From: Fidelibacterota bacterium
GTDB taxonomy: Bacteria > Fidelibacterota > Marinisomatia > Marinisomatales > Marinisomataceae
DNA length: 59,318 nt
Assembly: GCA_018672235.1 (NCBI GenBank)
Contig: JABHGE010000034.1
Coordinates: 1 to 59,318 of the forward strand
Reading direction: 5' to 3'
Both the position numbers and the translations under genes were made by a program. This document shows positions 16,921 through 48,768 of this stretch, piece by piece. The notes beneath the pieces were generated by a model. That model was not told the DNA's origin. It did no database searches and saw only the letters and a program-made list of their open reading frames with translations. Numbering within the stretch: position 1 is the first letter of the stretch; every line of letters starts with the position of its first letter.

Positions 16921-17379
16921 ATGCGTAGCCAATATACATTTACAGGACAATATGATTTTGTTATTGATTCAAAAAATCGAATCAATATTCCATCAATATT
17001 TCGCAAACAGCTCGATGAGTCGGATAAAAATAGATTTGTTATAACAAGAGGAATTGATTCTTGTATATGGATATATCCTTTAGGTGAATGGGAAAAAATT
17101 GAAAAAGAATTAAGTCAATTATCCTCTCTGTCTAAGGTAAACCGCACTTTTTTAAGAAATCATTTAAGGCATGCTAAAATAGTATGCTCAGATGATCAGG
17201 GTAGACTGATACTAACAAAAAATTTAATTGAGTATGCAAATATTTTAAAGAATATTACCATTATAGGCGTTTTAAATAAAATTGAGATATGGGATAATGC
17301 TACATTAGCAGTATCAGATTCCGAACAAAGTATTGATGAAGAATTCTATGAAGACCTTTCTAGGAGGGTCAATATCTGA
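16921..17379 (+). CDS. mraZ: transcriptional regulator MraZ
   Basis: Duplicated SpoVT/AbrB-like halves (DSKNRINIPSIFR and DDQGRLILTKNL). First gene of the dcw cluster. Confidence 0.9.
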   Translation: MRSQYTFTGQYDFVIDSKNRINIPSIFRKQLDESDKNRFVITRGIDSCIWIYPLGEWEKIEKELSQLSSLSKVNRTFLRNHLRHAKIVCSDDQGRLILTKNLIEYANILKNITIIGVLNKIEIWDNATLAVSDSEQSIDEEFYEDLSRRVNI

Positions 17380-18269: not shown

Positions 18270-18570
18270 AAAGAAAAGACTAACAAAAGCACAAATCCAA
18301 AAAAGAGAAAATATAAAATGGACTCTAATGTTTGTGTTAACGGTAGGAACAATTTCTTTATATTTAGCCGCTTTTATAGAGATAGATAAAACTCAAGCTA
18401 GTATTGATTTTAATCGACAAACATTAGCTCAGTTAGACGAAGATCTTATATTAAAAATTAATTCTGTTGAGAAGATGAAAAGAGCAGATGTTATTTCGAA
18501 AAAAGCAAAGAAAATTGGATTAATAGCAAGTAAGCCAGAGACACTCATCGTGAAAATAAGCAATGACTAA
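18262..18570 (+). CDS. ftsL: cell division protein FtsL-like
   Basis: 102 aa, basic N-terminus, one TM, then a coiled-coil. The call rests on position between rsmH and ftsI. Sequence similarity is not assessable by eye. Confidence 0.6.
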   Translation: MARKKRLTKAQIQKRENIKWTLMFVLTVGTISLYLAAFIEIDKTQASIDFNRQTLAQLDEDLILKINSVEKMKRADVISKKAKKIGLIASKPETLIVKISND

Positions 18571-20491
18571 AAATTATCTAAAATTTAAAAATAGAATACG
18601 ATTTGTAAGTACTATTCTTATGTTCGTTTGGGCTGTTTTTGTGTACAGATTATTTACAATTCAAATCATAGATAGAGTTGATAATCCACAGGGGATGAAA
18701 GTGGAGATGATTAAGGGTAAAAGAGGTAATATTTTTGATGTGAAAGGAAATAATATTACTCAGAATTTAACTTTTTATAATATCGGAGTACATCCAAGAA
18801 AAATAAGTAATAAAGATATTTTCTTAAGAGATCTATCTGATTGTACGGGTACTGATGTAGGTATTTATTTTTCTAAATTCAATGACGAAAAATCCTATAT
18901 ACAGTTAGAAAAAAAGACAATAGAGAATTGTCAAAAATTGAATTCAAAATATGGTGATGCACTTGTCATAAATCAAGATTATAAAAGATATTATCCTGAA
19001 GAAAACTTATTTGGTCAAATTGTTGGATTTACCAATGTAGATGATGTAGGAATTTCTGGTCTAGAATTTCAATATAATAAGCACTTAGAGCCTGAAGAAG
19101 GATCAAGAGTTTTTAAAAGAAATGGATTTGGTAAACGTATTGCTGATCCTACGTTAGCATATGAAGCGCCTGAAGATGGATCAGATATTTATTTAACTAT
19201 TAATAAAGAATATCAAGCAATTTTAAGAGAAGAATTGATTGATCAAGTAGAAAAAACTGAAGCATCCTCCGCTATGGGAATAATATTAAATCCTCAGACA
19301 GGAGAAATAGTATCTATGGTTAGTGTTCCTGATTTTAACCCTAATAATCCAGAAGACTTTGAATTGGAATATCAAAAAAATAGACTAATTCTAGATACGG
19401 TAGAGCCTGGATCAACTTTTAAGATTGTTACTATTGCAGCAGCTCTTAAGAGTGATATAGATCCAATGGATGAGTACAATGTCGAAGGCCCATATAATTT
19501 TCACGACATAAAAATGATTGAAGATTCTGAACCGCATTCTGTACTTACTGTTAAGGAAATTTTAGCTTATTCAAGCAATATAGGCACAATAAAGATTGCT
19601 GAGTCTTTGGGTCAAAATAAAATTTATAATCAAGCCAAAGAATTTGGTTTTGGATCTAAGACTGGTTTAAATCCGATGAGCGAAGCAAGTGGTATAGTTT
19701 ATGAAACTAAAAAATGGAGCAAATCTTCAATGCATAGTATTCCTTTGGGATATGAAGTTTCTGCTACTCCAATACAGATTGCTATGGCATATGCTGCAAT
19801 CGCAAATGGAGGTTTTTTATTGAAACCATACATGATTAACGAAGTTAAAAAAAGTGATAATACAATTTTAAAAAATGAAAAGAGATCTAAAAAAAGAATC
19901 CTTTCTCAGTCAGATGCAGAAATATTAAAAGACATGTTATTGCATACAGTTGAAAATGGAAGTGGAAAAAAAGCTCGACTATCTGGTTGGGATGTATCTG
20001 GAAAAACAGGGACATCTAAAAAAATTGTGGATGGTCAATATTCAGAATCAGAATTCTTATCTAGTTTTGTAGGATTTTTTCCAAAAGAAAATCCTCAATT
20101 ATTAGCATTAATCATGATTGATGGAGCATCAGTTTCTAGAAATTATCATTGGGGTTCTATGTCAGCAGCGCCTGTATTTAAGTCGGTAATGAAAAGAATT
20201 ATCAATATTGATTCAGAAATAACCAATAATAAATCTAAAAAGGCCACCAAGTCTAAAAAATCTGACCCAATTTTGATTCAAAAAAATGTTAAAAAATCTA
20301 AAGATATTCAAATGGTAGAAATGCCAAATTTATATGGTAAAAGCGTTATGGAAGCATACTCAATTTTAAATAAAACAGGTATCAAGGCTCAATTAACGGG
20401 TAATGGAGTAATAATTTTTCAATCTATATCAGTCGGAAAAGAAATACCTAAAAACTCTATATGTATACTAAAAGCAGATATAGAATCATGA
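18563..20491 (+). CDS. ftsI: peptidoglycan D,D-transpeptidase (class B PBP) with C-terminal PASTA domain
   Basis: N-terminal TM; transpeptidase motifs STFK, SSN and KTGT. The last ~59 aa (MVEMPNLYGKSV...) look like a PASTA domain. Confidence 0.9.
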   Translation: MTKNYLKFKNRIRFVSTILMFVWAVFVYRLFTIQIIDRVDNPQGMKVEMIKGKRGNIFDVKGNNITQNLTFYNIGVHPRKISNKDIFLRDLSDCTGTDVGIYFSKFNDEKSYIQLEKKTIENCQKLNSKYGDALVINQDYKRYYPEENLFGQIVGFTNVDDVGISGLEFQYNKHLEPEEGSRVFKRNGFGKRIADPTLAYEAPEDGSDIYLTINKEYQAILREELIDQVEKTEASSAMGIILNPQTGEIVSMVSVPDFNPNNPEDFELEYQKNRLILDTVEPGSTFKIVTIAAALKSDIDPMDEYNVEGPYNFHDIKMIEDSEPHSVLTVKEILAYSSNIGTIKIAESLGQNKIYNQAKEFGFGSKTGLNPMSEASGIVYETKKWSKSSMHSIPLGYEVSATPIQIAMAYAAIANGGFLLKPYMINEVKKSDNTILKNEKRSKKRILSQSDAEILKDMLLHTVENGSGKKARLSGWDVSGKTGTSKKIVDGQYSESEFLSSFVGFFPKENPQLLALIMIDGASVSRNYHWGSMSAAPVFKSVMKRIINIDSEITNNKSKKATKSKKSDPILIQKNVKKSKDIQMVEMPNLYGKSVMEAYSILNKTGIKAQLTGNGVIIFQSISVGKEIPKNSICILKADIES

Positions 20492-21831
20492 ATTTGAGTA
20501 ATAAAAATATCGGTATTTTAGGATTGGGTGTTAGCGGTTATTCCGCTGCAAAGCTAGCTAGTTCTCTTGGTGCTAATGTTTTTGTATCAGATAGTAAGTC
20601 AGATGTGAATGATTCATATATAAAAGAATTGACAGATATGGGAGTTGATATTGAATTAGGTCTTCACTCTAGAAAAATTCTTAACTCTGAATTGATTATA
20701 AAGTCTCCTGGAATTCCAAGTGATATAGAAATAATTCAAAGCATATTAGATAATAAAACAGAGATTATAAGCGAAATTGAGTTTGCCTATAGGTTGTCAG
20801 ATCTAAAAATTATTGCTATAACAGGTACAAATGGAAAAACTACCACAGTGACATGTCTATATGAGGTTTTAAAGAAAAAATTCAACGTTGTAAAAAGTGG
20901 AAATATTGGTACTCCATTCTCAGAAATTGTCTATAAAGAAAATAAATATAAAACATCAAATACTGATTTCTGCATATTAGAGTTATCAAGTTTTCAGATT
21001 GATGATATTGATACATTTAAACCTGAAATAGCAATGATTTTAAATATTTCGAGAGATCATTTGGATAGATATACAGATTTTATTGATTACTCTAAATCAA
21101 AGATGAATCTTTTTAAAAATATGAAGGATAATGATTTAATAATTTATAATCATGACGATCCTGTGCTATGTGAAGAAGTAGAGAAAAGAGATAGGGTATT
21201 TACAGCTTACTCCTTAGATAAGAATTTTAGCATATTTTACTTAGAAGATAGAATCATAGAATCTGTTCATAGCGAAAAAAATCTACATATAGATGATTGT
21301 AAATTATCAGGAATTCATAATATATCTAATTTTATAGGTATTGCTACTATTGCTTCACATCTAGGATTAGATGATAGAGATATCTTTGAATCATTAAAAA
21401 TATTTAAAGGTTTAGAACATAGATTTGAAACATTTAAAGAAGTTGATGGTGTGAAGTTTATCAACGATTCTAAAGCAACAAATATTGCTTCAGTCAAAGT
21501 TGCTATTGATTCTATAGATAAAAATATTATATTAATAATGGGAGGACTTCCCAAGGAATCAGATTTTTCAGCAATTATAGAGTGCTCTCAATCTATAAAA
21601 TCTATAATTGCTTACGGAAAAGCATCTAATGATATCTATAATTCATTATCTGAATCATGTAAAGTAGTAAAGATTGAAAAATTTGAAGAAGCAATTAATT
21701 CTGCAATTAACTTAGCAGTAAAAGGAGATTCTGTATTGATGTCTCCTGGATGTTCTAGTTATGATCAATTTAAAAATTTTGAAGAAAGAGGCAATTTTTT
21801 TAAAAGTATAGTAGAAAGGCATTATTCATGA
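20488..21831 (+). CDS. murD: UDP-N-acetylmuramoylalanine--D-glutamate ligase
   Basis: GLGVSGYS N-terminal Rossmann motif, ITGTNGKTTT P-loop and GLEHRFE. Start moved to the ATG at 20488, which gives an ATGA overlap with the ftsI stop. Confidence 0.9.
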   Translation: MNLSNKNIGILGLGVSGYSAAKLASSLGANVFVSDSKSDVNDSYIKELTDMGVDIELGLHSRKILNSELIIKSPGIPSDIEIIQSILDNKTEIISEIEFAYRLSDLKIIAITGTNGKTTTVTCLYEVLKKKFNVVKSGNIGTPFSEIVYKENKYKTSNTDFCILELSSFQIDDIDTFKPEIAMILNISRDHLDRYTDFIDYSKSKMNLFKNMKDNDLIIYNHDDPVLCEEVEKRDRVFTAYSLDKNFSIFYLEDRIIESVHSEKNLHIDDCKLSGIHNISNFIGIATIASHLGLDDRDIFESLKIFKGLEHRFETFKEVDGVKFINDSKATNIASVKVAIDSIDKNIILIMGGLPKESDFSAIIECSQSIKSIIAYGKASNDIYNSLSESCKVVKIEKFEEAINSAINLAVKGDSVLMSPGCSSYDQFKNFEERGNFFKSIVERHYS

Positions 21832-22961
21832 ATATTAAAGAAAGAAAACAAGATAGATGGTTGTTAGGCACGGTGATAGTGTTAGTTATTTTTGGTTTAT
21901 CAATTTTATTTAGTGCTAGTTGGATAAAATCCCTCGAAGTAACTGATGGAGTTTCACGTATGTATTTTTTGAAGAATCAATTATTTAAATTCATTCCAGG
22001 TTTATTTGTATTTTTTGTTGCATCTCATTTGAACTATAGAAAACTACAATATTTATCCCCTGTTTTAATGATAGGATCATTTTTGCTGTTAATATATACT
22101 CAAGTCCAAGGATGTAATGGAGACTCTTGTAGATGGCTATCTATTGGCCCAATTTCTTTTCAGACATCTGATTTAGCAAGATTTTCAGTAATTTTATTTT
22201 TAGCTGACTACATAGATAGAAATTATAAATATATGAATCAATTTGTTAAGGGAATCTTAATACCGTTATGTTGGATTTTACCTATTTGCTTAATGATTAT
22301 TATTCAGCCTGATAACTCTACCACCTTAATTTTGCTGTCTATTGTATTTATCCTGCTCTTTATTGGTGGCGTATCATTGCCACAAATAGGTACTGTAGGT
22401 GTATTATCTGTAGGAGCAATTGGAATTTTTATACTAAATAGTAAAAATTATGCATTAGGTAGAATACTATCATTTCTTGATCCTAGTTCTTCAGCTAGCG
22501 TAGGATATCAATCTAGTCAAGCATTGATTGGGTTGAGACAGGGAGGTATTTCAGGAATGGGTATTGGCGAAAGCATACAAAAACATTCTTATTTACCAGA
22601 GACTCATACTGACTTTATTTTTGCTATTATTGGGGAAGAGTTAGGTTTTATAGCAGGTTTTATAGTAATGATGGCTTATGGAATAATTTTATTTAGAGCT
22701 ATTCAAATTTCTAAAAAATCAAATGATATTTTTGGTATTATTCTCTCTATTGGTTTCGGATTAAGTATCACATTTTATGCATTAATAAATATTGGAGTAG
22801 TCATCGGGATTATACCGGTTACAGGTGTTCCACTCCCGTTTGTTAGCTATGGAGGCTCTTCATTGATTATCAATCTATTAATGGTAGCAATTCTATTAAA
22901 CATCAGTAAAGCACAAAGAAAATTTAAAGTTAAAAAATGGAGACTCCGAGTCGATGGATAA
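21828..22961 (+). CDS. ftsW: SEDS-family peptidoglycan glycosyltransferase FtsW
   Basis: Polytopic membrane protein with PETHTDFIF and PFVSYGGSS motifs. dcw position. Confidence 0.9.
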   Translation: MNIKERKQDRWLLGTVIVLVIFGLSILFSASWIKSLEVTDGVSRMYFLKNQLFKFIPGLFVFFVASHLNYRKLQYLSPVLMIGSFLLLIYTQVQGCNGDSCRWLSIGPISFQTSDLARFSVILFLADYIDRNYKYMNQFVKGILIPLCWILPICLMIIIQPDNSTTLILLSIVFILLFIGGVSLPQIGTVGVLSVGAIGIFILNSKNYALGRILSFLDPSSSASVGYQSSQALIGLRQGGISGMGIGESIQKHSYLPETHTDFIFAIIGEELGFIAGFIVMMAYGIILFRAIQISKKSNDIFGIILSIGFGLSITFYALINIGVVIGIIPVTGVPLPFVSYGGSSLIINLLMVAILLNISKAQRKFKVKKWRLRVDG

Positions 22962-24039
22962 ATATAGAATTATCTTTTGCGGAGGAGGAACTGGAGGGCA
23001 TTATTATCCATTAATGGCTATCAAGAATAAACTTGAAAAAAAAGTAGAGAATAAAAATTTATACTATATTGGATCAAAATATGGAATTGAGTCTAAGAAA
23101 ATTTATTCAGAAAATATCCAGAGTCTTCTCATCCCAATCAAAGGTTTTAATAGATCTTTTTCATTGTATGCAATATCAAGAAATTTCTTATTATTATTTC
23201 AATTATTTTTTGGTTTAATTAGAGTGAGTTTTTTCTTTGTAAAAAATAAACCAAATTTAGTAATTGCAACAGGTGGATATGCCTCATTTATACCTCTTCA
23301 GATAGCTAAAATATTCAGAGTGCCCTATTTTTTGCATGAACAAAATTCATTTCCAGGATTGGTCACTAGAATATTTGGATCCAGTGCAAAAAAAGTATTC
23401 CTTGGTTTTGAGAATGCAAAAAACTATTTAAAAACTAGCGACACTTTATTTACAGGGAATCCCATTTATAGTCATAATCGTAAAGATATGTCTCTATCCT
23501 TAGATAGTGATAAAAAAACTTTATTGGTGCTCGGCGGAAGTCAAGGTTCAGTATTTTTAAATAAAATTATTTCAGAATCTATTGATAATAAAATGTTAGA
23601 TAGAATTAACATTCTTTGGATTGTAGGTATTAATAATTATGAAAAATATAAGCATTATAATACTAAATCAATTAAAGTCCTTTCTTTCGTTGATAATATG
23701 CCATATTTATACAGTTTATGCGATTTAATAGTTTCAAGATCTGGTGCTATGACAGTATCTGAAATATTAGAGTTTAAAAAACCTTCAATCCTTATACCTT
23801 TCAAGTTCTCAGCAGAGAATCATCAAGTTTTTAATGCTAAATATTTAGAAGAAAATTTTGCAGCACTATTAATTCAAGAAAAAGATATATCTATGTCGTT
23901 ATTATCAAATAAGATCAATCAAATTTGTGAAAATGATAGAATATATAAGTCAATGAAAGAAAGTATTGAGAAAATAGATAATCCAGATTCAATCAATATC
24001 ATAGATACTACAATCATGGAGCATATGCATGTTATCTAG
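22954..24039 (+). CDS. murG: UDP-GlcNAc:lipid I GlcNAc transferase
   Basis: GGGTGGH N-terminal motif, GGSQGS, and RSGAMTVSE. Confidence 0.9.
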   Translation: MDKYRIIFCGGGTGGHYYPLMAIKNKLEKKVENKNLYYIGSKYGIESKKIYSENIQSLLIPIKGFNRSFSLYAISRNFLLLFQLFFGLIRVSFFFVKNKPNLVIATGGYASFIPLQIAKIFRVPYFLHEQNSFPGLVTRIFGSSAKKVFLGFENAKNYLKTSDTLFTGNPIYSHNRKDMSLSLDSDKKTLLVLGGSQGSVFLNKIISESIDNKMLDRINILWIVGINNYEKYKHYNTKSIKVLSFVDNMPYLYSLCDLIVSRSGAMTVSEILEFKKPSILIPFKFSAENHQVFNAKYLEENFAALLIQEKDISMSLLSNKINQICENDRIYKSMKESIEKIDNPDSINIIDTTIMEHMHVI

Positions 24040-25396
24040 CATAAAAAGAATTCATTTTATTGGTATAGGCGGCATAGGAATGAGTGGAATCGCTGAGCTA
24101 TTGCATAATCAAGATTTTATAATTACAGGTTCAGATTTGTCTGAATCACAAAATATTGATAGGCTTAGAAAATTAGATATTTTTATATCAATTGGACATG
24201 ATAAGAAAAATATAGCAACAACCGAAATTGTAGTCTATTCTGATGCCATTCCTCATAATAATGTTGAATTAATTGAGGCAAAAGATAAAAATATTAAATG
24301 TTATTCTAGAGCAAAAATGATATCACAGCTTGCGAAATTAAAAAGCTCTACAGTAGGAATTTCTGGTACACATGGAAAGACCACCACTACATCTATGATT
24401 GGTTCAATATTAAAGGATTCTAATTTAGATCCCACGATTATTGTAGGCGGCGTAGTTAAATCAATCAATACCAATTCTGTATTAGGTTCTGGAGATACAT
24501 TTGTAGTAGAAGCAGATGAGTTTAATAGAACTTTTTTAGAGCTTTCTCCTACTATAGCAGTAATTAATAATATCGATCTTGAGCATATTGATTGTTATGA
24601 TAGCTTAGAGGATTTAAAAGATGCCTTTACTCATTTTGCTAATTCAGTACCTTTTTATGGGATGGTTAGTGTTTGTAAAGATTCTCAAAATGCTGCATCT
24701 ATCATACCGTTAATTGATAAGCCAATTGTTACTTATGGAATAGAATCTGATAACGTTGATTTTAAAGCTATAAATATCATACATGACAATGGCACTGTTG
24801 CATTTGACCTCATCTATGAAAACAAGAGCTATGCATTTTCAATGATTATTCCAGGCTCCTATAATATTTTAAATGCTTTAGCAGCTATATCTGTATGTAA
24901 AACTATGGGTTTATCGATACAAAGAATCAGTGAAAGTTTAAAAAGTTTTTCAGGCGTGAAAAGAAGATTTGATATTAAGGTTCATAGTGAAAAATTAACT
25001 ATTATTGATGATTATGCTCATCATCCAGTAGAAGTATTTAGTGTTATCAAAGCAGTAAAGAGTAATTGGAGTAGAAGATTGGTAGTAATTTTTCAGCCAC
25101 ATCTCTATTCTAGGACTAAAGAATTTTATAAAGATTTTGCAGAATCCCTTTTAGGCGCTGATGTGGTCTTTATTACTGAAATTTTTGCTTCAAGAGAAAA
25201 ATTAGATATCTCTATTACCTCAAGGAATATTAGCAATCATCTTAAAAAGCTTGAACATAAAAATGTATTTGATACTACTACTGATTCTGTAATTGAAGAT
25301 ATCAAAAATTATTACAATGAAGGTGACATTATTTTGACTGTTGGAGCTGGTAATATTTGGAGATACGCAGATAAATTAACTGAGAATATCCAATGA
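24029..25396 (+). CDS. murC: UDP-N-acetylmuramate--L-alanine ligase
   Basis: HFIGIGGIGMSGIAELL, GTHGKTTTTSM and DDYAHHP motifs. Confidence 0.92.
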   Translation: MLSSIKRIHFIGIGGIGMSGIAELLHNQDFIITGSDLSESQNIDRLRKLDIFISIGHDKKNIATTEIVVYSDAIPHNNVELIEAKDKNIKCYSRAKMISQLAKLKSSTVGISGTHGKTTTTSMIGSILKDSNLDPTIIVGGVVKSINTNSVLGSGDTFVVEADEFNRTFLELSPTIAVINNIDLEHIDCYDSLEDLKDAFTHFANSVPFYGMVSVCKDSQNAASIIPLIDKPIVTYGIESDNVDFKAINIIHDNGTVAFDLIYENKSYAFSMIIPGSYNILNALAAISVCKTMGLSIQRISESLKSFSGVKRRFDIKVHSEKLTIIDDYAHHPVEVFSVIKAVKSNWSRRLVVIFQPHLYSRTKEFYKDFAESLLGADVVFITEIFASREKLDISITSRNISNHLKKLEHKNVFDTTTDSVIEDIKNYYNEGDIILTVGAGNIWRYADKLTENIQ

Positions 25397-26322
25397 TTGA
25401 TATGCTAAAGAAAGAGATTGTAGATACAACCAATGCAACTATCTCTGTGGATGAGCCAATGAAGAAGCATACTACGTATGGGATTGGAGGTCCAGCAGAA
25501 TTATTTGTTTTGCCTTCAGATAAGAATGACCTCATCAGTATTGTTCAGTTAAGCAAAAAGTACAAACAGACTGTGACTATTATAGGCTCAGGATCAAATT
25601 TATTAATAAGCGATAATGGTATTAAAGGCGTTGTGATATCTATTAAACATTGCTTAAGAACAATCAATGTCGATATAGATAAGATTTATGTAGAGTGTGG
25701 GACTATGTTAGGTAAGATAGTAAAAGAGTCCATGAAACATGACTTAAAAGGATTGGAGAACCTTATTGGGGTTCCAGGAACTCTTGGTGGCGCATTAATG
25801 ATGAACGCAGGTGCTTGGGGTGGAGAGGTTTCTGAAAATTTAGAAAGCGTAGAATTATTAAATGATAAAAATGAAATTGAAATACTATCTAAATCAGATA
25901 TTGATTTTTCTTATAGGTCATCTTCTTTTGGTAATGATATAATTTTGTTGTCAGCAATATTCAAGCTCAAAAAATCAGATAAAAAAATAATTCAAGATAA
26001 TTTTGATTTAGCAAAATCGGGAAGAAAGAATACACAACCACTAAATTATCGATCTGCTGGTAGTGTATTTAAAAATCCTTCTAGCAAGCATTCCGCTGGT
26101 ATGTTGATAGATCAATCAGGTTTGAAAGGATTTTCAGTAGGAGATGCTAAGATTTCTAATAAGCATGCCAACTTTTTTTTGAATACAGGAGATGCAAAAG
26201 CTGACGATATGATATCTCTAATCAAGCAGGCAAAGGATGCTGTAAAAGATCAATTTAATATTCAGTTAGATTTAGAAGTGAGATTACTAGGATTTAATTC
26301 TGAGGAGATTAGTGAATTATGA
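25393..26322 (+). CDS. murB: UDP-N-acetylenolpyruvoylglucosamine reductase
   Basis: FAD-binding GSGSNLL, AGSVFKNP and NHANFF motifs. Confidence 0.9.
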   Translation: MIDMLKKEIVDTTNATISVDEPMKKHTTYGIGGPAELFVLPSDKNDLISIVQLSKKYKQTVTIIGSGSNLLISDNGIKGVVISIKHCLRTINVDIDKIYVECGTMLGKIVKESMKHDLKGLENLIGVPGTLGGALMMNAGAWGGEVSENLESVELLNDKNEIEILSKSDIDFSYRSSSFGNDIILLSAIFKLKKSDKKIIQDNFDLAKSGRKNTQPLNYRSAGSVFKNPSSKHSAGMLIDQSGLKGFSVGDAKISNKHANFFLNTGDAKADDMISLIKQAKDAVKDQFNIQLDLEVRLLGFNSEEISEL

Positions 26323-27071
26323 ATAAAAATTTTATAAAGATTTTTGATTCTATTAGTCAGCCATTCTTCTGTCTATTACTTGTAGTAGCTTCTCTTTTTA
26401 TTTCTATTAAATGGGCACAATTCAATGAAATATTTATTGTAAAAAATGTAAAAATTGAAGGTATAAATTATTTTGACGATACTATGTTAGTAGAATACAA
26501 GGCAAATATAGAGAATCAAAATATTTTCTTTTCAGATTTAAGAAATTATAAAAATAGTATAGAGTCATTAGATCATATAAAAGGCTGTAAAATATCACGA
26601 GTATTTCCTAAAACTGTAAAAATAGAAGTCTATGAAAGAGAGCCATTGGCTATGATTAGCTCTAACGATTTAATTATTCTTGATTCCGAGGGAATATGTC
26701 TTCCTGTTGAATATTGTGAGATTTCACTACCTATATTATCAAATTTCAAAAATAATCAAGAGCTATATGAGAAAGGTAAGAAAACCAAATCATCTAATGT
26801 TTTGAAATCCATTGATGTTATTAAATACTCAAAAGATACCTTCGATTCTTTGTATGATAATATGTCTGAATTTATTTTTAACGAAGATAGTGAATATGAG
26901 ATTATTCTAAAAAACGGCAGAACAAAAATTTTATTGGGCTCTAGTAATATTTTTACAAAGATAGATTACTTAAGTGCATTTTCAGATGTATTGCCAGAAG
27001 AAAAAACATTAGAGAGTTATAGGTATATAGATTTAAGGTATAAGAGCCAGATAGTGGTGAACGAAATATAA
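26319..27071 (+). CDS. ftsQ: cell division protein FtsQ (POTRA domain)
   Basis: N-terminal TM, a POTRA-like I..V.I.G segment, and the KIEVYEREPLA motif. Lies between murB and ftsA. Confidence 0.75.
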   Translation: MNKNFIKIFDSISQPFFCLLLVVASLFISIKWAQFNEIFIVKNVKIEGINYFDDTMLVEYKANIENQNIFFSDLRNYKNSIESLDHIKGCKISRVFPKTVKIEVYEREPLAMISSNDLIILDSEGICLPVEYCEISLPILSNFKNNQELYEKGKKTKSSNVLKSIDVIKYSKDTFDSLYDNMSEFIFNEDSEYEIILKNGRTKILLGSSNIFTKIDYLSAFSDVLPEEKTLESYRYIDLRYKSQIVVNEI

Positions 27072-28312
27072 TGAAAAATAGAATACAAGTAGCTTTTGAC
27101 TTAGGATCTTTTAGTATTAAAGGAGCTGTTGGAAGAATAATAAATGATGATCAAATAGAAATTTTATCTATTCGATCTATACAAACAGATAGTATCAGAA
27201 ATGGAGATATTGTAGACAAAGAGGCGCTACTTCATGGTTTGGAATATTTAATCGAAAAAATGGAAAAAGATGCTAAAATTAATATCGATGACGACGCATG
27301 GGTTTCAGTATCTGGAAAAAATATTAAATCAATTAATTCATCAACACGGATTAGATCAAAAGATAATTCTGAATTTGAGGTGAATGATAGTACAAAACAA
27401 AAATTACTAACTCAATGTTCTGATATTCAAGTTTCTTCTGATAGATATGTATTACATAATCTAGAAAGAGGATTTTTTATAGATGGTTCATCGCTCATAC
27501 GTAATCCTCTTGGGATGATAGGTAAGTCTATTGATGCGAAATCACATGTAATTCATATTAAAAATTTCAATTTATCACAAATCGATCATTGTTTTAGCGA
27601 TGATTTGAGTATTGAAGTGAATCCTGTATTTGACGGCTTGGCAGCGGCGTCTGCAAATCTTAATAAGGATGATCAAGATTTAGGTGTCATGTTTATAGAT
27701 GTAGGTGCAGATAAGACCAATATGTTATTATATAAAGATAATTATTTAATTCATTCTAAAGTGATTCCATTGGGTTCAAAATCTGTTACAAAAGACATAG
27801 CTGCTTATCTTCAAACATCTATAAAGCAGGCAGAAAAAATTAAACATGAACATGTTTCTGCATTGTCAGATTTTGCAGATGCTGAATCTAATTTTGAACT
27901 ATCTATACAGAACGATGACCTAACAAAGAGTATAAATAAACAAGAGATATCTAAAATTGCTGAATTAAGATATGAAGATATTATCGACCAAATAAAATCT
28001 GAGATGAAATTATTGCGTATTGATGTTGCAGATATAAGATCAGGTATCAAGATTACAGGCGGCGGATCTAACGTAAAAAATTTAGATTTATTATTTAAAA
28101 AACATTTTGAAGATACAAAATGCGAGTATCTACCAATAAGTAATATTGTGTTTAAAGAAAACCTAGAAGACAGAAGAGAGCTTTCCACTTTGATTGGCCT
28201 ACTATCTTGGCCAATATTTAACGTTGAAGATAGTAGTCCAACTGTTGGAATTAAAAATTTTGAATCAATTACAAAGAGCATTTCCAGTGTATGGAAAGGG
28301 TTTTTTGAGTAA
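27071..28312 (+). CDS. ftsA: cell division protein FtsA
   Basis: Actin-like ATPase pattern (VAFDLGSFSIKG, FIDVGADKTN, ITGGGS). Immediately upstream of ftsZ. Confidence 0.85.
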   Translation: MKNRIQVAFDLGSFSIKGAVGRIINDDQIEILSIRSIQTDSIRNGDIVDKEALLHGLEYLIEKMEKDAKINIDDDAWVSVSGKNIKSINSSTRIRSKDNSEFEVNDSTKQKLLTQCSDIQVSSDRYVLHNLERGFFIDGSSLIRNPLGMIGKSIDAKSHVIHIKNFNLSQIDHCFSDDLSIEVNPVFDGLAAASANLNKDDQDLGVMFIDVGADKTNMLLYKDNYLIHSKVIPLGSKSVTKDIAAYLQTSIKQAEKIKHEHVSALSDFADAESNFELSIQNDDLTKSINKQEISKIAELRYEDIIDQIKSEMKLLRIDVADIRSGIKITGGGSNVKNLDLLFKKHFEDTKCEYLPISNIVFKENLEDRRELSTLIGLLSWPIFNVEDSSPTVGIKNFESITKSISSVWKGFFE

Positions 28313-28335
28313 AAAAATATAAAAAGGAGATTAGT

Positions 28336-29535
28336 ATGTTATTTGAATTTGATGAGTTAGCAAGCCAAAGGGCGAGGATTAAGGTACTTGGAATTGGAGG
28401 TGCTGGAGGAAATGCAATAAATAGAATGATTACTTCAGGTATGGACGGAGTAGAATTTATTGCCATTAATACAGATGCTCAAGATTTGGGAAGCAATCCA
28501 GCGGAAACAAAACTTCAGATTGGAAAAGATCTTACGAAAGGATTGGGTGCAGGAGCAAAACCTGATATTGGAAGAAAAGCTATTATGCATGATAAAGATG
28601 CTGTTGCTTCATTGGTTGCGGGAGCAGATTTAGTATTTGTTACTGCAGGAATGGGTGGTGGAACTGGTACAGGAGCAGCTCCAGTTGTAGCAAAAGTATG
28701 CAAAGATTTAGGTATCCTAACCGTATGTATTGTTACTCTACCGTTTACGTTTGAAGGTTCAAAAAAAATGGAATCAGCACTCAAAGGCGTTGCTTCAATG
28801 AGAAATTTCTGCGATACATTAATTATCGTTCCGAATCAGAAATTATTATCTGTTGTTGATAACGCTACAACATTTGAGGACGGATTTAAAGAGTCGGATG
28901 CGATATTGTTGCAAGCAGCTAAAAGTATATCAGATCTAATTAATAAACAGGGAAATGTAAATATTGATTTCGCTGATGTAGAATCGGTAATGAGTGGTAT
29001 GGGTGATGCTGTAATAGGCGCAGGAACTGCAAGAGGAGAAGAAAGAGCGGTATTAGCTGCTCAACAAGCTATTTGTAGTCCTTTGTTAGACTCTCAGTCA
29101 ATCAGTGGAGCTAAGGCAGTATTAGTAAATATAACCGGAAATAAAAAAATGACTTTGCTCGAAGTTGATGCCGCGATGAAACTTATCCATGAAGAAGCAG
29201 GTCAAGGCGTAAAAGTTATCTTTGGAGTTCGCGTTGATGAAAATATGGAAGATGAGCTTCAAGTTACTGTTATTGCAACAGGGTTCAATCGTAAACCAAT
29301 TGAAGAAAAAGAAATGTTAAAAGAAAGAATGTCTCATAGCTCTGATAGAAAAAGTGAAGAGCTTATGGATACTCCAAATACAACATTATATCAAAAAAAC
29401 AATCCAGAAGGATTTGAATTTGATGACTCTGTAAGAGATGAAGATGATGGAAGTGATGGACCTACTTTAGTATTTGATGATTTTGATCAAAGCCAAGACT
29501 TAGAGGTCCCTGCTTATATAAGAAAACAAAGATAA
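28336..29535 (+). CDS. ftsZ: cell division protein FtsZ
   Basis: Tubulin signature GGGTGTGAAPV, NTDAQDL, and the conserved C-terminal peptide DLEVPAYIRKQ. Confidence 0.97.
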   Translation: MLFEFDELASQRARIKVLGIGGAGGNAINRMITSGMDGVEFIAINTDAQDLGSNPAETKLQIGKDLTKGLGAGAKPDIGRKAIMHDKDAVASLVAGADLVFVTAGMGGGTGTGAAPVVAKVCKDLGILTVCIVTLPFTFEGSKKMESALKGVASMRNFCDTLIIVPNQKLLSVVDNATTFEDGFKESDAILLQAAKSISDLINKQGNVNIDFADVESVMSGMGDAVIGAGTARGEERAVLAAQQAICSPLLDSQSISGAKAVLVNITGNKKMTLLEVDAAMKLIHEEAGQGVKVIFGVRVDENMEDELQVTVIATGFNRKPIEEKEMLKERMSHSSDRKSEELMDTPNTTLYQKNNPEGFEFDDSVRDEDDGSDGPTLVFDDFDQSQDLEVPAYIRKQR

Positions 29536-34179: not shown

Positions 34180-36021
34180 TTATTTCTTCGCTACTTTGTA
34201 TAATCCATAAATAATAGTTGCTATCAGAGCAAATCCTATCAAGTCATTGTAAGGAGAAGGAAGTGCGTATTCAGGCCAGAAATTTTTATCATAAAATAAA
34301 GGTATGGCAATAAATATAGCCATCAATGCTTCTCCTGTAATTAAACCTGAAGCTAGTAATAAGCCATTATTTTTACCTGAGTCAGAAGCGGTTTTTCCAG
34401 CAAAATGATTAAGCATTCCACCGATAAAAATAGGAAGAGTTAATTCAATAGGTAAATAAATTCCAATCGCAACTGCTAGTATAGGAACTCTGAACTCTGC
34501 TCCTCTGCGTAATTGATATTGATCAAGCATAATAATTAATATTCCTAATATTCCTCCAGCATAAATCATTCCCCATTCCAGATTGCCAGAGAATACGCCA
34601 TTTGCTACACTAGTCATAAGTACTGCTTGAGGGGCGGGTAAGTCTGAGCTTCCAATGCCATACGCTTCATGTAGTAGCGTTAAAACAATTCCAAGCGTTA
34701 GCGCAGAGCTAATAACACCAACTAACTGCATAAGTTGCTGTTTCCATGGTGTAGCACCAACAATATTACCCGTTTTAAGGTCTTGTAAGTTATCTCCACC
34801 AATTGCTGCAGCACAGCATACTACTGCACCAATAAGAATAGCAGCAGCTCCTCCCTTGGATGAGTCTACATCAAAGAAAGTAATAATTAATAATGAACTG
34901 AATAAGATTGTAGCAATAGTTACACCTGATATAGGATTATTCGAAGATCCTACTACTCCTGCCATATAAGCAGCAACAGCAGAGAATAGAAATCCAAAGA
35001 TACACATAATAATAGATAGTGTAATCGCAGAAGTCCAAGATGGAATAATATCAAAATATGTATACGATATAGGTATAAGCATTAATAGGATAGCTATAAA
35101 GACATAGTTAATAGGAAGATCTCTTTCTTCTAGCGGAACATCCTTAGCATTGTCGCCTAAAGTTTTTAGACTCAACTGAATACTTTCAACAAGAGGTTTT
35201 GCTAATTGAATAACAGACCAGATTCCACCAACTACCATTGCTCCAACACCTAAATAACGTATTTTTGCATTCCAAATAATGTTTGCACCTTCAAATAAAG
35301 AATCACCTTCATATCCATACAGATAAGAATAAATAGGAATTGCTACTACCCATGAGATTAATCCACCAGAAAAAGCAAGGATACCGATATTACGACCTAC
35401 GATATATCCCACACTAATAAGTGAAGGAGATAAGCTAGATCCCAATCCAAAAACAGCACCTCTAATAGCTACGGCTCCACCGATAGCACTAGACCAAATA
35501 CCAAATGCTAATTCTCCAAGCTTAACCACTCCTCCTACAACAGCAGATAGTCCAATTATTTTTAAGCTTTCACTCGATTTTTTGGCATCAGATTCATGTC
35601 CCGTTTTTAATACAGCGGCAGTTGCAACACCTTCAGGAAACTTTAAATTTGCTTTTAGAATTAATGCACGTCTTAATGGTACAGTAAATAATGCTCCCAA
35701 TATTCCACCCACCATAGCAATCTTCGTTACTTCCCAATAATCAATCGTATCCCAATAGCCTATCAATAATAAGGCAGGAATAGTGAAAATAACTCCAGCT
35801 GCTAATGATTCTCCAGCCGATGCTGCTGTTTGCACAATATTGTTCTCTAAAATATTTGATTCACGAAATAGTTTTAAGATTCCCATTGACATAATTGCGG
35901 CAGGAATAGAAGCAGAGATTGTCATACCTGCATATAAACCTAGATAGGCCATAGCAGAAGAAAGAACTATAGATAGAAGAATACTTAAAAAAAATGCTTT
36001 TACTGTTATCTCTTGTTTCAT
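34180..36021 (-). CDS. OPT-family oligopeptide transporter
   Basis: 613-aa polytopic membrane protein. The conserved bacterial OPT stretch FPEGVATAAVL and the overall pattern fit the family. Confidence 0.85.
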   Translation of the reverse strand: MKQEITVKAFFLSILLSIVLSSAMAYLGLYAGMTISASIPAAIMSMGILKLFRESNILENNIVQTAASAGESLAAGVIFTIPALLLIGYWDTIDYWEVTKIAMVGGILGALFTVPLRRALILKANLKFPEGVATAAVLKTGHESDAKKSSESLKIIGLSAVVGGVVKLGELAFGIWSSAIGGAVAIRGAVFGLGSSLSPSLISVGYIVGRNIGILAFSGGLISWVVAIPIYSYLYGYEGDSLFEGANIIWNAKIRYLGVGAMVVGGIWSVIQLAKPLVESIQLSLKTLGDNAKDVPLEERDLPINYVFIAILLMLIPISYTYFDIIPSWTSAITLSIIMCIFGFLFSAVAAYMAGVVGSSNNPISGVTIATILFSSLLIITFFDVDSSKGGAAAILIGAVVCCAAAIGGDNLQDLKTGNIVGATPWKQQLMQLVGVISSALTLGIVLTLLHEAYGIGSSDLPAPQAVLMTSVANGVFSGNLEWGMIYAGGILGILIIMLDQYQLRRGAEFRVPILAVAIGIYLPIELTLPIFIGGMLNHFAGKTASDSGKNNGLLLASGLITGEALMAIFIAIPLFYDKNFWPEYALPSPYNDLIGFALIATIIYGLYKVAKK

Positions 36022-36037
36022 AATTTCAACTTACAAA

Positions 36038-36113
36038 TTATTTAACAGGGGTGCAATTGCTGAGAACAAACCCTATGACTTGATCTAGATAATGCTAGCG
36101 TAAGGAAAAATAA
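36038..36113 (+). promoter_or_regulatory. TPP (THI-box) riboswitch
   Basis: GGGGTGC-AATTG-CTGAGA-ACAA-ACCC-TATGACTTGATCTAGATAATGCTAGCGTAAGGAA matches the THI-box core of E. coli thiM (GGGGUGC..CUGAGA..ACCC..CCUGAUCUGGAUAAUGCCAGCGUAGGGAA). P5 carries a compensatory change (CUAG/CUAG versus CUGG/CCAG) and P3 is minimal. A possible P1 is TTATTT (36038-43) with AAATAA (36108-13). The AAGGA Shine-Dalgarno-like element lies inside the aptamer 3' side. Confidence 0.85.
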
Positions 36114-36119
36114 AAAAAA

Positions 36120-36425
36120 ATGAAAAATAAATATATATCGTACTTAACGCTGATTGCAATGTTCTTTATGAGCATTCAAGTTTTTCATAAGCACGATTTA
36201 AATTTATTGCCTGAAGATGTATTTAGTCAAAATAGTGAATCGCTGATAAATGAAGAAGTGCATAAATGTGATTCGTGTCAATTAGGATATGCTAAATTTT
36301 TTATTACAGACAACACTTTCTTATTTAATGAAGTTTTTTCTAGTAATAATAACGCAGTTCAATCTGAATTATATTTCTATAAAGAAATTTATAGTATATC
36401 AAATAAGTCTCCACCTCTAGTTTAA
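36120..36425 (+). CDS. hypothetical small membrane-anchored Cys/His-motif protein
   Basis: 101 aa with an N-terminal TM (YLTLIAMFFMSIQVF) followed by HKHD, an HKCDSC motif, and C-terminal SPPLV. First ORF after the TPP riboswitch and upstream of the TonB-dependent receptor. Confidence 0.5.
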   Translation: MKNKYISYLTLIAMFFMSIQVFHKHDLNLLPEDVFSQNSESLINEEVHKCDSCQLGYAKFFITDNTFLFNEVFSSNNNAVQSELYFYKEIYSISNKSPPLV

Positions 36426-36499
36426 TAATTATACAATTATAATATTAATCGATACCTGTAAAGGTATCCAATTTATTAAACTCATTTAAGGAGAAAAAA

Positions 36500-38905
36500 A
36501 TGAAACAATTTATTTTAACACTATTTTTTATGAGCATTGTTTTTGCTCAATCAACAATCACAGGACTTGTCATTGATCAAGATACAGGTCTTCCGTTAAA
36601 GGATGCAAATGTATCTGTCGTTGATGACAGTGGAACAAGTATTGCTGGAACTAGTACAGATGATGACGGAAAATTTGAACTTAGTCTTTCTGAAGCCAGA
36701 AAAGTTCAAGTCTCTGTTATTGGATATGAGAATGCAACTGCTGATGTAGTATTTAATCAGTCTATGATTTTCAATCTTGTAAGCGAAGCCATATCTTTTG
36801 AAGGTGTAAGAGTCTTCTCGTCACTTCGCAAAGTTAATGAAGGTGACCTAGCTACTTCAGCAATCATTTTTAATGATGAGCTACAAGTTAAGCAAGGACA
36901 GCACTTCAGTGACTTAATACAAAAAGTTCCAAATCTAAATTATGCAGGTGGAACCTCCAGACCGAAATATTTTCAAATTAGAGGAGAGGGTTCTGTAAGT
37001 CGATATGCTGATCAAGGACCTCCAAGTACTTATGTTGGATTAGTTTTAGATGGAATGGATCTATCTGAACTTGGTATGATTACACCTCTTTTTGATATGC
37101 AGCAGGTAGAAGTACTAATGGGTGTTCAAACTAGTTTATTTGGTGCATCAGCATCTTCTGGTTTGATTAATTTTAAAACTAACGATCCAACGGATAAACA
37201 AGAAGGATATGTTATGACCCAATTTGGTTCATACAATACTCTTACAAATGGAATTGTCTATAATACTCCATTATTAAATGGTTGGAAGTTAAGATTAGTA
37301 GGTCACTCGAATGTTTCAGATGGATATAAAGATAATGTTGCTTCAGGCATAGATTATGCATCAGCAAATAGAGATGAGACATCATTTAGAGCTAAATTAT
37401 TAAAGACTGGCGATAATAATATCACGCAAAAGTATACAATGATTTACTCTGATTTTGATAATGGATATGATAACTGGGCTCCAGATAATAATACTGATAA
37501 TATTACCTATTCAGATAATCCAGGTAAAGACAGTCAAAAATCACAGATTTTTATAGCTGACTATAGTTATGATCTTGACGAAGGTTTTGCTGAGCTGAAT
37601 GTCGGTGTATCAAACAATGAAACATTACATAGTTATGATTCAGATTGGGGAAATTATCAATTTTGGTTTCAAGATCCTTACAACTTTGATCCAGCAGTAG
37701 AAGGATATCAATATGACTTTTTTGATTCATTCGATAGAGACATTGATACAAGAACTGTTGATTTTAGGTTAAGATCAAATACTGCCAATGATAATAAAGT
37801 AGACTATGTAATGGGATTATATCAGTCTAATTATGAAGAAAAAACTAATGCAGATGGATACATTTTTGGAGGCTCTTCCACAGGTTTAGCTTCTGCTTAT
37901 GATATTATCACAAAGTCTGCATATGGTGAATTAGCATTTAATTTTAAAAATGATTCATCAGTTTCTTTAGCCTTTAGATCCGAAGCTAGAGATCTTACAT
38001 ATAATGATTTTAATGATAAAAGTGCAAGCTTTGATATGATGGGTGATTTTGAAAACTCATATAAAATTGCTTATGAATTTCATCCAACTCCAACCCTACA
38101 TTGGTTTGCTTATTATGCTGAAGGATATCATCCTGCAGGTATAAATCAAAATCCATATTTAGACGCGGATGAAAAAACATATGATGCAGAAACTTATTTT
38201 GATATAACTACTGGAATAAGATGGTATACTGATAATATAAAATTATCAAGCTCTCTATTTTACTTAGAGCATGATGATCATATTTATGAAACAAGCGAGC
38301 AATTAGATCCAATGAATCCTAATGCATTTGCTTTTTTTAAGACAAATGCTGAATCAGGCTATGAATATGGTTCTGAATCAACTGGTGAATTTAGAATAAC
38401 TGATAAATTTACTATCAACGCTACTTTAGGATTATTGAGCTCTGAAATTGAGTTGGGTGGTCATGATGAACATGGCGATGAACATGGCGATGATGACCAT
38501 GATGATGATCACGGCGATGATGATCATGATGAACATGGCGATGAACATGAAGGCCATGAGCATGGTAAAAAAGCACATTCACCAAACTGGAATTACAGCT
38601 TATCATTTAACTATGATTTCACTGTAAACAATTCTTTAATGATTGAAATTTCAGGAAAAGATGGATTTGTATTTGATTCTGCGCATGATGAGTATGAATC
38701 AGAACCATATCATCTATTGAATGCATATTATAATCATTCAATCAATCAATTTGATCTAGGATTCTATGCAAAAAATATCCTTGATGAAAGTTACGCAGAT
38801 AGAGGATTTATTCTTGGTCTAGAACCTCCAATATATGAAGAGAAGCTATACAAATCTTTTGGACCTCCAAGAGAAATTGGAATGTCATTAACATATAGTT
38901 TCTAA
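36500..38905 (+). CDS. TonB-dependent outer-membrane receptor with N-terminal CarboxypepD_reg-like domain and a His/Asp-rich loop
   Basis: Signal peptide (FFMSIVFAQ), then a carboxypeptidase-regulatory-like beta-sandwich (ITGLVIDQDTGLPLKDANVSV). Plug region (YFQIRGEG), a long beta-barrel, and a terminal aromatic residue (LTYSF). Confidence 0.9.
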   Translation: MKQFILTLFFMSIVFAQSTITGLVIDQDTGLPLKDANVSVVDDSGTSIAGTSTDDDGKFELSLSEARKVQVSVIGYENATADVVFNQSMIFNLVSEAISFEGVRVFSSLRKVNEGDLATSAIIFNDELQVKQGQHFSDLIQKVPNLNYAGGTSRPKYFQIRGEGSVSRYADQGPPSTYVGLVLDGMDLSELGMITPLFDMQQVEVLMGVQTSLFGASASSGLINFKTNDPTDKQEGYVMTQFGSYNTLTNGIVYNTPLLNGWKLRLVGHSNVSDGYKDNVASGIDYASANRDETSFRAKLLKTGDNNITQKYTMIYSDFDNGYDNWAPDNNTDNITYSDNPGKDSQKSQIFIADYSYDLDEGFAELNVGVSNNETLHSYDSDWGNYQFWFQDPYNFDPAVEGYQYDFFDSFDRDIDTRTVDFRLRSNTANDNKVDYVMGLYQSNYEEKTNADGYIFGGSSTGLASAYDIITKSAYGELAFNFKNDSSVSLAFRSEARDLTYNDFNDKSASFDMMGDFENSYKIAYEFHPTPTLHWFAYYAEGYHPAGINQNPYLDADEKTYDAETYFDITTGIRWYTDNIKLSSSLFYLEHDDHIYETSEQLDPMNPNAFAFFKTNAESGYEYGSESTGEFRITDKFTINATLGLLSSEIELGGHDEHGDEHGDDDHDDDHGDDDHDEHGDEHEGHEHGKKAHSPNWNYSLSFNYDFTVNNSLMIEISGKDGFVFDSAHDEYESEPYHLLNAYYNHSINQFDLGFYAKNILDESYADRGFILGLEPPIYEEKLYKSFGPPREIGMSLTYSF
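38462..38563 (+). repeat. in-frame low-complexity H/D/E/G tract with a 25-bp perfect direct repeat
   Basis: Encodes HDEHGDEHGDDDHDDDHGDDDHDEHGDEHEGHEH. CATGATGAACATGGCGATGAACATG occurs at 38462-38486 and again at 38525-38549, an offset of 63 bp (21 codons). Confidence 0.85.

Positions 38906-48694: not shown

Positions 48695-48768
<74 letters not shown>

Follow-up and report, generated by a model that had tools for sequence, protein, structure and literature searches.

A predicted thiamine pyrophosphate riboswitch, an orphan His/Cys protein and an omr1/OMthi-like TonB-dependent receptor with metal-type loops in Candidatus Marinimicrobia

Introduction

What is imported by an outer membrane receptor that is encoded behind a vitamin sensor and carries a loop of the kind found in metal receptors? 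The question is raised by a 59,318 nucleotide (nt) stretch of DNA, here called the window, read on the forward strand of contig JABHGE010000034.1 (assembly GCA_018672235.1, Fidelibacterota bacterium). In brief, a predicted thiamine pyrophosphate (TPP) riboswitch is followed by a 101 amino acid (aa) protein with His and Cys motifs and by an 801 aa TonB-dependent receptor (TBDR). An earlier note on this DNA, made from the sequence alone, left two alternatives: an uptake module for thiamine or a precursor with an unusual accessory protein, or the use of thiamine status to control uptake of something else, the receptor having a loop of the kind known from zinc-type receptors such as ZnuD.

Rodionov and co-workers reportedly predicted omr1 in 2002, by comparative genomics, as a thiamin-regulated outer membrane receptor. 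OMthi (BT2390) of Bacteroides thetaiotaomicron is regulated by a TPP riboswitch and contributes to thiamine uptake (PMC5613172). In marine surveys omr1 serves as a marker of vitamin B1 uptake, and its specificity has been called unclear (PMC12442306). ZnuD, a zinc TonB-dependent transporter (TBDT) of Neisseria and Acinetobacter, has a flexible surface loop rich in His and Asp (PMC4557270, PMC2895646). For Marinimicrobia, our literature searches turned up no work on thiamine uptake, on auxotrophy or on this receptor.

We favour, with moderate confidence, the reading that the window encodes a thiamine-family outer membrane uptake module under a translational TPP riboswitch, whose receptor has in addition acquired a metal-binding function. 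New in this streamlined clade are an inserted orphan open reading frame (ORF), hypervariable loops of metal type, fast divergence and the recurrent clean loss of the riboswitch.

Sequence data and searches

The whole window was scanned against Rfam at curated thresholds, which gave two matches above threshold, one tRNA and one TPP riboswitch. Receptor homologs were collected from one genome per species, and the best 80 loci were kept (L001-L080). Loci L001-L019 are orthologs, 62-98% identical to the window receptor. Receptors of this type all come from Candidatus Marinimicrobia (SAR406, Neomarinimicrobiota, Fidelibacterota). Loci L020-L080 are relatives with 30-35% identity, from Marinimicrobia, Latescibacterota, Gemmatimonadota, Lentisphaeria, Planctomycetota and Chromatiales. 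A covariance model, R1, was trained on 25 aptamers from the distant loci only and searched against the window and all 80 loci. Its training set replaced a MAFFT alignment that had put the mini-P3 sequences in the wrong place.

TPP riboswitch

The aptamer (THI element) is located at 36037-36125 on the plus strand and is recognized by RF00059, by R1 and by covariation. The earlier note had named a search with RF00059 as the way to check its THI-box. That search gave a significant match over the full model (1-105), with 58.9 bits against a gathering score of 54.3 (E=5e-9). R1, which knows only distant relatives, scores the same site at 75.4 bits. The element lies upstream of a two-gene unit, as had been claimed, and the start codon of the small ORF falls within its 3' end.

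All core blocks are present, again as claimed: the pyrimidine-sensor block (CUGAGA, P2/P3) and the pyrophosphate-sensor block (P4/P5, ...GAUC..G.UAAU.C..GCG) are complete at 36047-36104. In brief, P1 pairs UUAUUU (36038-36043) with AAAUAA (36108-36113), and P2 pairs AGGG-G-U (36047-36052) with A36068 and CCCU (36071-36074). P3 is reduced to a 2-bp mini-P3, GCAAUUGC at 36053-36060, with only a G-C and a C-G pair around an AAUU loop, and the UGAGA block is found at 36061-36065. P4 pairs CUUG (36079-36082) with UAAG (36101-36104), where the usual form is CCUG/UAGG; P5 pairs CUAG (36085-36088) with CUAG (36095-36098), where the usual form is CUGG/CCAG. The window thus holds two compensatory double changes relative to the usual sequence, C-G to U-A in P4 and G-C to A-U in P5. 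The earlier note had recognized the change in P5 and overlooked the one in P4.

Both changes recur in a set of 40 aptamers, where the second pair of P4 is CG in 26 and UA in 14 and the third pair of P5 is GC in 23 and AU in 16. In an alignment of these 40 that was fitted to the covariance model, and is biased in that direction, 94.3% of the cells in P2-P5 are paired, 11 pairs are changed on both sides and none of 500 shuffles equalled the covariation score. An independent MAFFT alignment of the aptamers gave 90.8% paired cells in P2-P5, with nine pairs changed on both sides. The sequence GGGGUGCAAUUGCUGAGA, which is the 5' half of the mini-P3 aptamer, is also found in complete THI-boxes of unrelated organisms (L086, L088, L089, L091 and about 35 more metagenome loci, including human gut; L103, L110, L117, L145, L154), indicating that a 2-bp P3 is a recurrent natural form. 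Some of these unrelated THI-boxes carry a P3a insertion. By model score, core blocks and covariation the window element is a TPP riboswitch, and it would be expected to bind TPP.

A second TPP aptamer was seen in two distant loci of Latescibacterota/Gemmatimonadetes (L029 3326-3423, with an Rfam score of 67.3 bits, and L041 3325-3422). It lies approximately 190 nt upstream of an ORF of the LacI family or with a periplasmic-binding domain, an odd target for a TPP riboswitch.

TonB-dependent receptor

The receptor gene (36500-38905, plus strand) encodes an 801 aa protein with CarboxypepD_reg, plug and barrel domains, assigned from Pfam (Plug 2.6e-10, CarboxypepD_reg), from an AlphaFold2 (AF2) model searched with Foldseek, and from synteny. 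The two-gene unit described in the earlier note, a 101 aa ORF followed by an 801 aa CarboxypepD_reg receptor, agrees with the ORF map and with Pfam. The AF2 model has a predicted local distance difference test (pLDDT) score of 73.5 and matches TBDTs in Foldseek (E=3e-34, template modelling (TM) scores 0.65-0.81). Sequence searches of the PDB and Foldseek searches gave generic TBDT matches alone and no hint of the cargo. The sole sequence match was FyuA, and the best folds were FyuA, PqqU and FhuA. The Foldseek top 50 are receptors for siderophores, pyrroloquinoline quinone (PQQ), heme, copper and B12, with FhuA-T5 structures among them.

The gene neighbourhoods of the relatives are more informative. 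In the R1 search all distant species with upstream DNA (59 of 59, from at least five phyla) have a TPP aptamer immediately before the receptor; loci L054 and L079 begin at a contig end and are left out of the 59. Ten of these distant aptamers pass the Rfam gathering score, and L006 and L021 fall just below it. In 17 loci of Latescibacterota or Gemmatimonadota the gene immediately downstream encodes a thiamin pyrophosphokinase with both Pfam TPK domains. In Chromatiales (L069/L074) the receptor is followed by a PnuC-family transporter and an APH-type kinase, and in L058/L059 the start of a sodium:solute symporter (SSS) gene overlaps the receptor stop codon.

We found no thiamine genes in the 59 kb window, in line with what the earlier note had said of the unit. 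Most Marinimicrobia receptors stand alone, for example P0085 between thioredoxin and epimerase genes, and the lack of a thiamine gene beside the window receptor is therefore normal. The order OPT (minus strand), riboswitch and TBDR, polA is common to the window and distant Marinimicrobia, where the OPT-family gene is divergent and upstream in 21 loci and polA is downstream in six. Among the orthologs, L001-L019, the order is TPR, SPOR, OPT (minus strand), small ORF, receptor, polA.

Since it is a positional ortholog of an aptamer-linked family that adjoins TPK, PnuC-type and SSS genes, the receptor is predicted to be an omr1/OMthi-like thiamine receptor, and so of a known kind. This assignment is one by architecture, riboswitch linkage and synteny rather than by alignment to BT2390 or to the omr1 of Rodionov. 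The linkage in 59 of 59 species and the thiamine genes beside the receptor elsewhere make the first alternative of the earlier note, the thiamine or precursor uptake module, the better supported of the two. By analogy with the family, the ligand is probably thiamine or a vitamer: the receptor would have descended from omr1/OMthi-type importers of these compounds and probably still imports them.

The receptor has diverged fast. It is 32% identical to other Marinimicrobia receptors, versus approximately 62% for the OPT transporter and approximately 55% for PolA, and a neighbour-joining tree places the window clade on a long stem. In the alignment 109 columns are at least 95% conserved in the outgroup, and 85 of these (78%) are kept in the clade.

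Two further observations concern the receptor gene itself. Between the window (36500-38905) and L001 (6001-8418) it is nearly identical, with a synonymous divergence (dS) of 0.064 and 98% aa identity, whereas dS is 0.52 in the small ORF and 0.42 in OPT. This suggests a recent recombination or allele transfer limited to the receptor gene. In a subclade comprising L005, L008, L012, L013, L015-L017 and L087 the receptor has lost its N-terminal CarboxypepD_reg domain (718-779 aa remain), and the same subclade has the most His-rich small proteins.

Retention and loss of the riboswitch

According to the earlier note, its reading would be weakened if the element were not conserved upstream of orthologous receptors. 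In 12 of the 17 sister species with upstream DNA the riboswitch is missing and a gap of approximately 30 nt is found instead, which does weaken it. The distance between OPT and the small ORF in these loci is 22-43 nt, except for 183 nt in L014, where the OPT start is perhaps miscalled. Neither Rfam nor R1 (E up to 1) detected an aptamer anywhere in the 12 loci. The flanking motif CAACTTACAAAT (36025-36037 in the window), beside the OPT start codon, is kept in all ortholog lineages with or without the riboswitch; it may be an OPT leader or a shared promoter element. The metagenome contig L087 carries a unit of subclade II, with a short receptor that has a His/Asp (HD) loop and with a very His-rich small protein, and has retained the riboswitch. 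Together with the tree, this implies that the riboswitch was deleted in at least two to three independent events.

Where the aptamer is retained, it is conserved. The aptamer of the window differs from that of L001 by 2 substitutions in 96 nt, versus a synonymous divergence (pS) of 0.32-0.38 in the flanking genes, and from that of L006 by approximately 10%, versus a flanking pS of 0.45-0.53. Thirteen distinct natural variants in the clade differ solely at J3-2, J2-4, the P5 loop and P1, and the core blocks are invariant. All thirteen share U-A in P4 and A-U in P5. Judged from these comparisons, the retained aptamer is under purifying selection.

Proposed translational control and its reach

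The expression platform, as read from the sequence, spans 36102-36122 on the plus strand. It consists of a Shine-Dalgarno (SD)-like AAGGA at 36102-36106, which partly coincides with the 3' strand of P4, an A-rich leader that holds the 3' strand of P1, and the start codon at 36120. Each of the 29 aptamers listed has a start codon 10-19 nt past its GCG, and the universal UAGGGA (UAAGGA in the window) thus doubles as P4 3' strand and SD. This layout is that of a translational switch that does not need a separate expression platform, and we infer the mechanism from it. An intrinsic terminator after the aptamer was considered and ruled out, the following tract being A-rich and not U-rich.

We suggest the following mechanism. 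At high cellular TPP the aptamer would fold, and the 3' strands of the TPP-bound P4 and P1 would sequester the AAGGA at 36102-36106 and the leader up to 36113, blocking initiation at 36120. Ribosomes would then be unable to start on the 101 aa His/Cys protein, which would be the direct target of TPP repression.

The earlier note had placed both genes under the riboswitch. This is tenable for the small ORF, which directly follows the aptamer. The receptor starts 375 nt after the aptamer end, with one small ORF between, and 380 nt past the start of that ORF. It has its own strong SD, AAGGAG at 36488-36493 (plus strand, read from the sequence, 6 nt before the ATG), which is kept in all ortholog loci whether the riboswitch is present or absent. 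Upstream of it, between the two genes, a scan for terminators matched the hairpin GAUACC-UGUAAA-GGUAUC at 36451-36468 (plus strand), which is followed by CAAUUUAUU. Folding of this region gave z = -2.99, and compensatory changes preserve the inverted repeat in 12 of 16 ortholog loci; the hairpin looks like a terminator or an attenuator. With a strong SD of its own after such a hairpin, the receptor would be controlled by TPP indirectly at best, solely through lost ribosome protection, polarity or mRNA decay. The step from the aptamer to control of the receptor, for which we assume polarity, is the weakest part of the model.

The hairpin was also considered as a site for a shared regulator; this is unsupported, as the palindrome is not repeated elsewhere in the window. 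A sigma-70 promoter scan gave 17 matches versus 20 expected from shuffled sequence, and with no enrichment we did not assign a promoter. The sublineage L004/L009/L014/L019 lacks the hairpin and has TAttTTTG approximately 20 nt before the receptor SD, similar to the -7 promoter element of Bacteroidetes, which hints at an independent receptor promoter in these four loci.

Small His/Cys protein

The small ORF (36120-36425, plus strand; 101 aa) was delimited from the ORF map and from the invariant residues of the ortholog alignment. An N-terminal hydrophobic helix is always present in the orthologs. H23, C50-x-x-C53 and a C-terminal NKSPP are invariant, while pairwise identity goes down to 23%. 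The ratio of nonsynonymous to synonymous divergence (dN/dS) is 0.32-0.49, indicating that the ORF encodes a real protein. Proteins of sister lineages carry runs such as HVHMHEHDHADHADH, and in several lineages they are very His-rich.

The family comprises 143 clusters, all unnamed and without Pfam domains, and apparently all from this clade. A profile search of 1.84 billion representatives gave 16 proteins, all of the same small family save one borderline match to a 2,775 aa protein (E=3.9e-4), and hence no link to a known family. Nor was any of 16 members assigned to a family by Pfam or NCBIfam, even at E up to 5. The AF2 model, with a pLDDT of 47, shows the N-terminal helix only and is unusable.

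The small ORF occurs solely together with this receptor. Among the orthologs only the basal L010 type is without it, and there the same aptamer is placed directly on the receptor start codon. On the sequence comparisons above we regard the small protein as an orphan new to this clade of Marinimicrobia, inserted between aptamer and receptor.

The small ORF begins with codons (MKNKYISYL, 36120-36140) that resemble the receptor start of the L010 type (MKYTLSIL, L010 5959-5980), at equal distance from the aptamer. One speculative possibility is that the ORF was created when an insertion cut the former start off from the receptor gene.

His/Asp loops

The 34-residue His/Asp/Glu/Gly loop pointed out in the earlier note is H655-H688 (38462-38563, plus strand), delimited from repeats found with Tandem Repeats Finder (TRF) and from disorder in the AF2 model. 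It is the only His-dense stretch in any ORF or reading frame of the window. Tandem repeats of 9/12/24 nt encode the loop (TRF arrays at 38463-38550). Located after the residues GLLSSEI, it measures 13-19 aa in basal lineages and reaches 69 aa elsewhere in the clade, and even among proteins 94-100% identical to the window receptor its length varies between 21 and 56 aa. The relatives with 33-35% identity lack it. In several lineages HD repeats of 28-52 aa have taken the place of a second loop, whose ancestral form, QDPYNFDPAVEGYQ, is conserved in the outgroup.

In the AF2 model residues 654-690 are disordered (pLDDT below 50) and lie between barrel strands 637-651 and 697-705. By a count of strands back from the C-terminus, the loop would lie on the extracellular side. 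We take it that the His/Asp loops and the small His/Cys protein would bind a divalent metal, either as added cargo or as a capture aid.

Proposed function of the uptake module

A second, metal-linked job of the receptor would explain how TPP control was loosened and then deleted. Insertion of the small ORF would first have loosened the control, and deletion of the aptamer would have finished the process in most sister species. With a metal among its tasks, repression of the receptor by TPP alone would be a liability.

Several points weigh against a thiamine module with added metal binding. The Rfam score is just 4.6 bits over threshold, P1 is made of A and U only and P3 is cut to 2 bp. The folding energy of the aptamer alone is at the level of shuffled sequence (z = -0.17); the case for the riboswitch rests on the covariance model and the comparative evidence. 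The riboswitch is missing from most sister species, and since the receptor has its own SD behind a hairpin, TPP control may barely reach it. The other Marinimicrobia receptors are nearer to those of other phyla (44%) than to the window clade (32%), which sits on a long branch. The remaining 24 of the 109 conserved columns hold replacements fixed in the clade, several of which remove charges (R415I, D449T, E570T, R591H, R689G); on such a branch they could have changed the binding site. HD repeats stand in for the whole of the conserved loop QDPYNFDPAVEGYQ in some lineages, and His/Asp loops are typical of metal receptors, not of vitamin receptors.

Several of these points also fit a neofunctionalised metal importer. 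The former thiamine receptor would now be a receptor for zinc (or cobalt, nickel, copper), with loops that fish for metal, a small protein that hands it on in the periplasm, and a riboswitch left over on the small ORF. HD repeats were gained in two different loops, reaching 69 aa, and the small protein combines an invariant His and CxxC with a very high His content in several lineages. The stem branch is accelerated, with the 24 fixed replacements at conserved sites and five charged residues lost. Clean deletions, at least two to three of them independent, have removed the riboswitch from 12 of 17 species, and translation of the receptor is uncoupled from the aptamer. ZnuD (PMC4557270) provides a precedent for His/Asp loops in zinc receptors. 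However, the surviving aptamer is under clear purifying selection and is not decaying, and it persists even in the lineages whose proteins are the most metal-like (L006/L007, L087). The receptor keeps 78% of the most conserved positions of its family and is no closer to ZnuD than to any TBDT by sequence and fold. No znu or zur gene was found in the window or in the ortholog loci, and no other metal gene nearby. The best 80 loci include no second, classical copy from the genomes of the clade, which would leave the thiamine job vacant; the point is weak, since the list was cut at these 80 loci. We consider a complete change to metal import possible and rather doubtful.

Slightly more doubtful to us is a receptor caught in the middle of a change of job, an ancestral thiamine receptor remade for metal capture by its His/Asp loops and by a new His/Cys partner in the periplasm. 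The window organism would represent a halfway stage, with metal uptake still gated by cellular TPP, and its sisters would be those in which the riboswitch has been deleted. If this is correct, trace-metal acquisition would for the first time be seen under a TPP riboswitch, and the clade would document how a change of cargo can lead to the loss of a riboswitch.

The loops could also serve surface variation only, in a receptor that is purely a thiamine receptor. Slippage-prone repeats would vary an exposed loop, for example for escape from phages or grazers, with no role for metal, and the small protein would have an unrelated function in the envelope. The tandem 9/12/24 nt repeats and the spread of 21-56 aa among proteins 94-100% identical are what such a process would give. 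The receptor allele has apparently moved recently between lineages (dS 0.06 vs 0.42-0.52 in the flanking genes), as is typically seen in surface proteins subject to diversifying or sweeping selection. Phages commonly use TBDTs as receptors, and FhuA-T5 is among the Foldseek matches. Slippage alone is nevertheless no explanation for loops that are strictly H/D/E/G in every lineage and in two independent positions. Nor does it account for a co-evolving small protein enriched in the same ligand residues, and the repeated loss of the riboswitch would be left without a reason. We regard this as improbable.

Most improbable is that the window holds two separate units, a thiamine-related small protein controlled by the riboswitch and a receptor expressed from its own promoter near the end of the small ORF, unlinked to thiamine status: the terminator-like hairpin, the independent strong SD and the TAttTTTG that replaces the hairpin in L004/L009/L014/L019 would fit this, but the ancestral L010-type arrangement has the aptamer directly on the receptor start codon, the small ORF is found only with this receptor and the promoter scan is not enriched (17 vs 20 expected).

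A thiamine-family module with acquired metal binding thus remains the reading we prefer, and it has consequences beyond this locus. The use of omr1 as a marker is strengthened, as one such receptor family has the riboswitch in all examined species with upstream DNA outside the window clade, across several phyla, and is linked to thiamine salvage genes. The abundant, streamlined SAR406 clade has a remodelled receptor and usually no riboswitch, and surveys based on the marker could misread these genes. The clade provides a natural series for the uncoupling and loss of a riboswitch, from an aptamer on the receptor to an aptamer on an inserted ORF to none. It could also show whether one receptor serves both a vitamin and a trace metal.

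Neighbouring genes

The divergent neighbour is an OPT-family transporter of 613 aa (34180-36021, minus strand; Pfam OPT 1.2e-103, TIGR00733 4e-167). The 98 nt between it and the small ORF (36022-36119) are filled by the riboswitch, and the earlier note had pointed out that the riboswitch overlaps the promoter space of OPT. The overlap is real. It does not tie OPT to the riboswitch, since the gene has the same position and start in species that lack the riboswitch, indicating that its promoter is independent of the riboswitch DNA.

In tblastn searches OPT adjoins the receptor in 16 ortholog loci and in 23 distant loci of Marinimicrobia (L021, L027, L034, L036, L043, L045-L048, L052, L055, L056, L058, L059, L062, L064, L066-L068, L071, L075, L077, L078). 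It is usually divergent; in L058/L059 it is co-directional and downstream, after the SSS symporter. An adenosine deaminase gene is often found with it. OPT may be the inner membrane partner of the receptor, and the association could also be inherited synteny.

The genes outside 34180-38905 are housekeeping genes with no bearing on the unit. They include a complete division and cell-wall (dcw) cluster at 16921-29535, which begins with mraZ/mraW (Pfam was checked for those two genes only). The tRNA is located at 48695-48768 (60.9 bits), and the same tRNA is found after polA, at a shorter distance, in several ortholog loci.

Comparison with known systems

The window unit resembles omr1 and OMthi in that a TBDR is preceded by a TPP aptamer, and in that relatives of the window receptor are found in operons with TPK or PnuC-family genes, as OMthi is with pnuT-tnr3. 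In contrast to these systems, the window unit has an extra small His/Cys ORF between aptamer and receptor, and its receptor has His/Asp repeat loops and has diverged very fast. Furthermore, the riboswitch is lost in most sister species, and no thiamine salvage gene is adjacent in the window.

ZnuD and the window receptor share a His/Asp-rich surface loop on a TBDT, with the surface side predicted for the window receptor. ZnuD is regulated by Zur and works with ZnuABC, whereas here control is by a TPP riboswitch or absent and no znu genes are near. The loops of the window clade are tandem-repeat arrays of very variable length. Specific similarity in sequence or fold was not seen: ZnuD is not in the Foldseek top 50, and the PDB sequence match is FyuA only. 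The metal or ZnuD-type receptor of the earlier note is thereby reduced to a likeness in loop composition.

The SAR11 clade is said by Carini and co-workers (2014) to have a sodium:solute symporter for hydroxymethylpyrimidine (HMP), ThiV, behind a TPP riboswitch. Uptake of HMP by Pelagibacter has been described (PMC11452348). ThiV is an inner membrane symporter, whereas the window protein is an outer membrane receptor. The two arrangements are alike in that a TPP aptamer precedes a transporter and not a biosynthesis gene in an oligotrophic marine bacterium, and the related receptor of L058/L059 has an SSS symporter right behind it.

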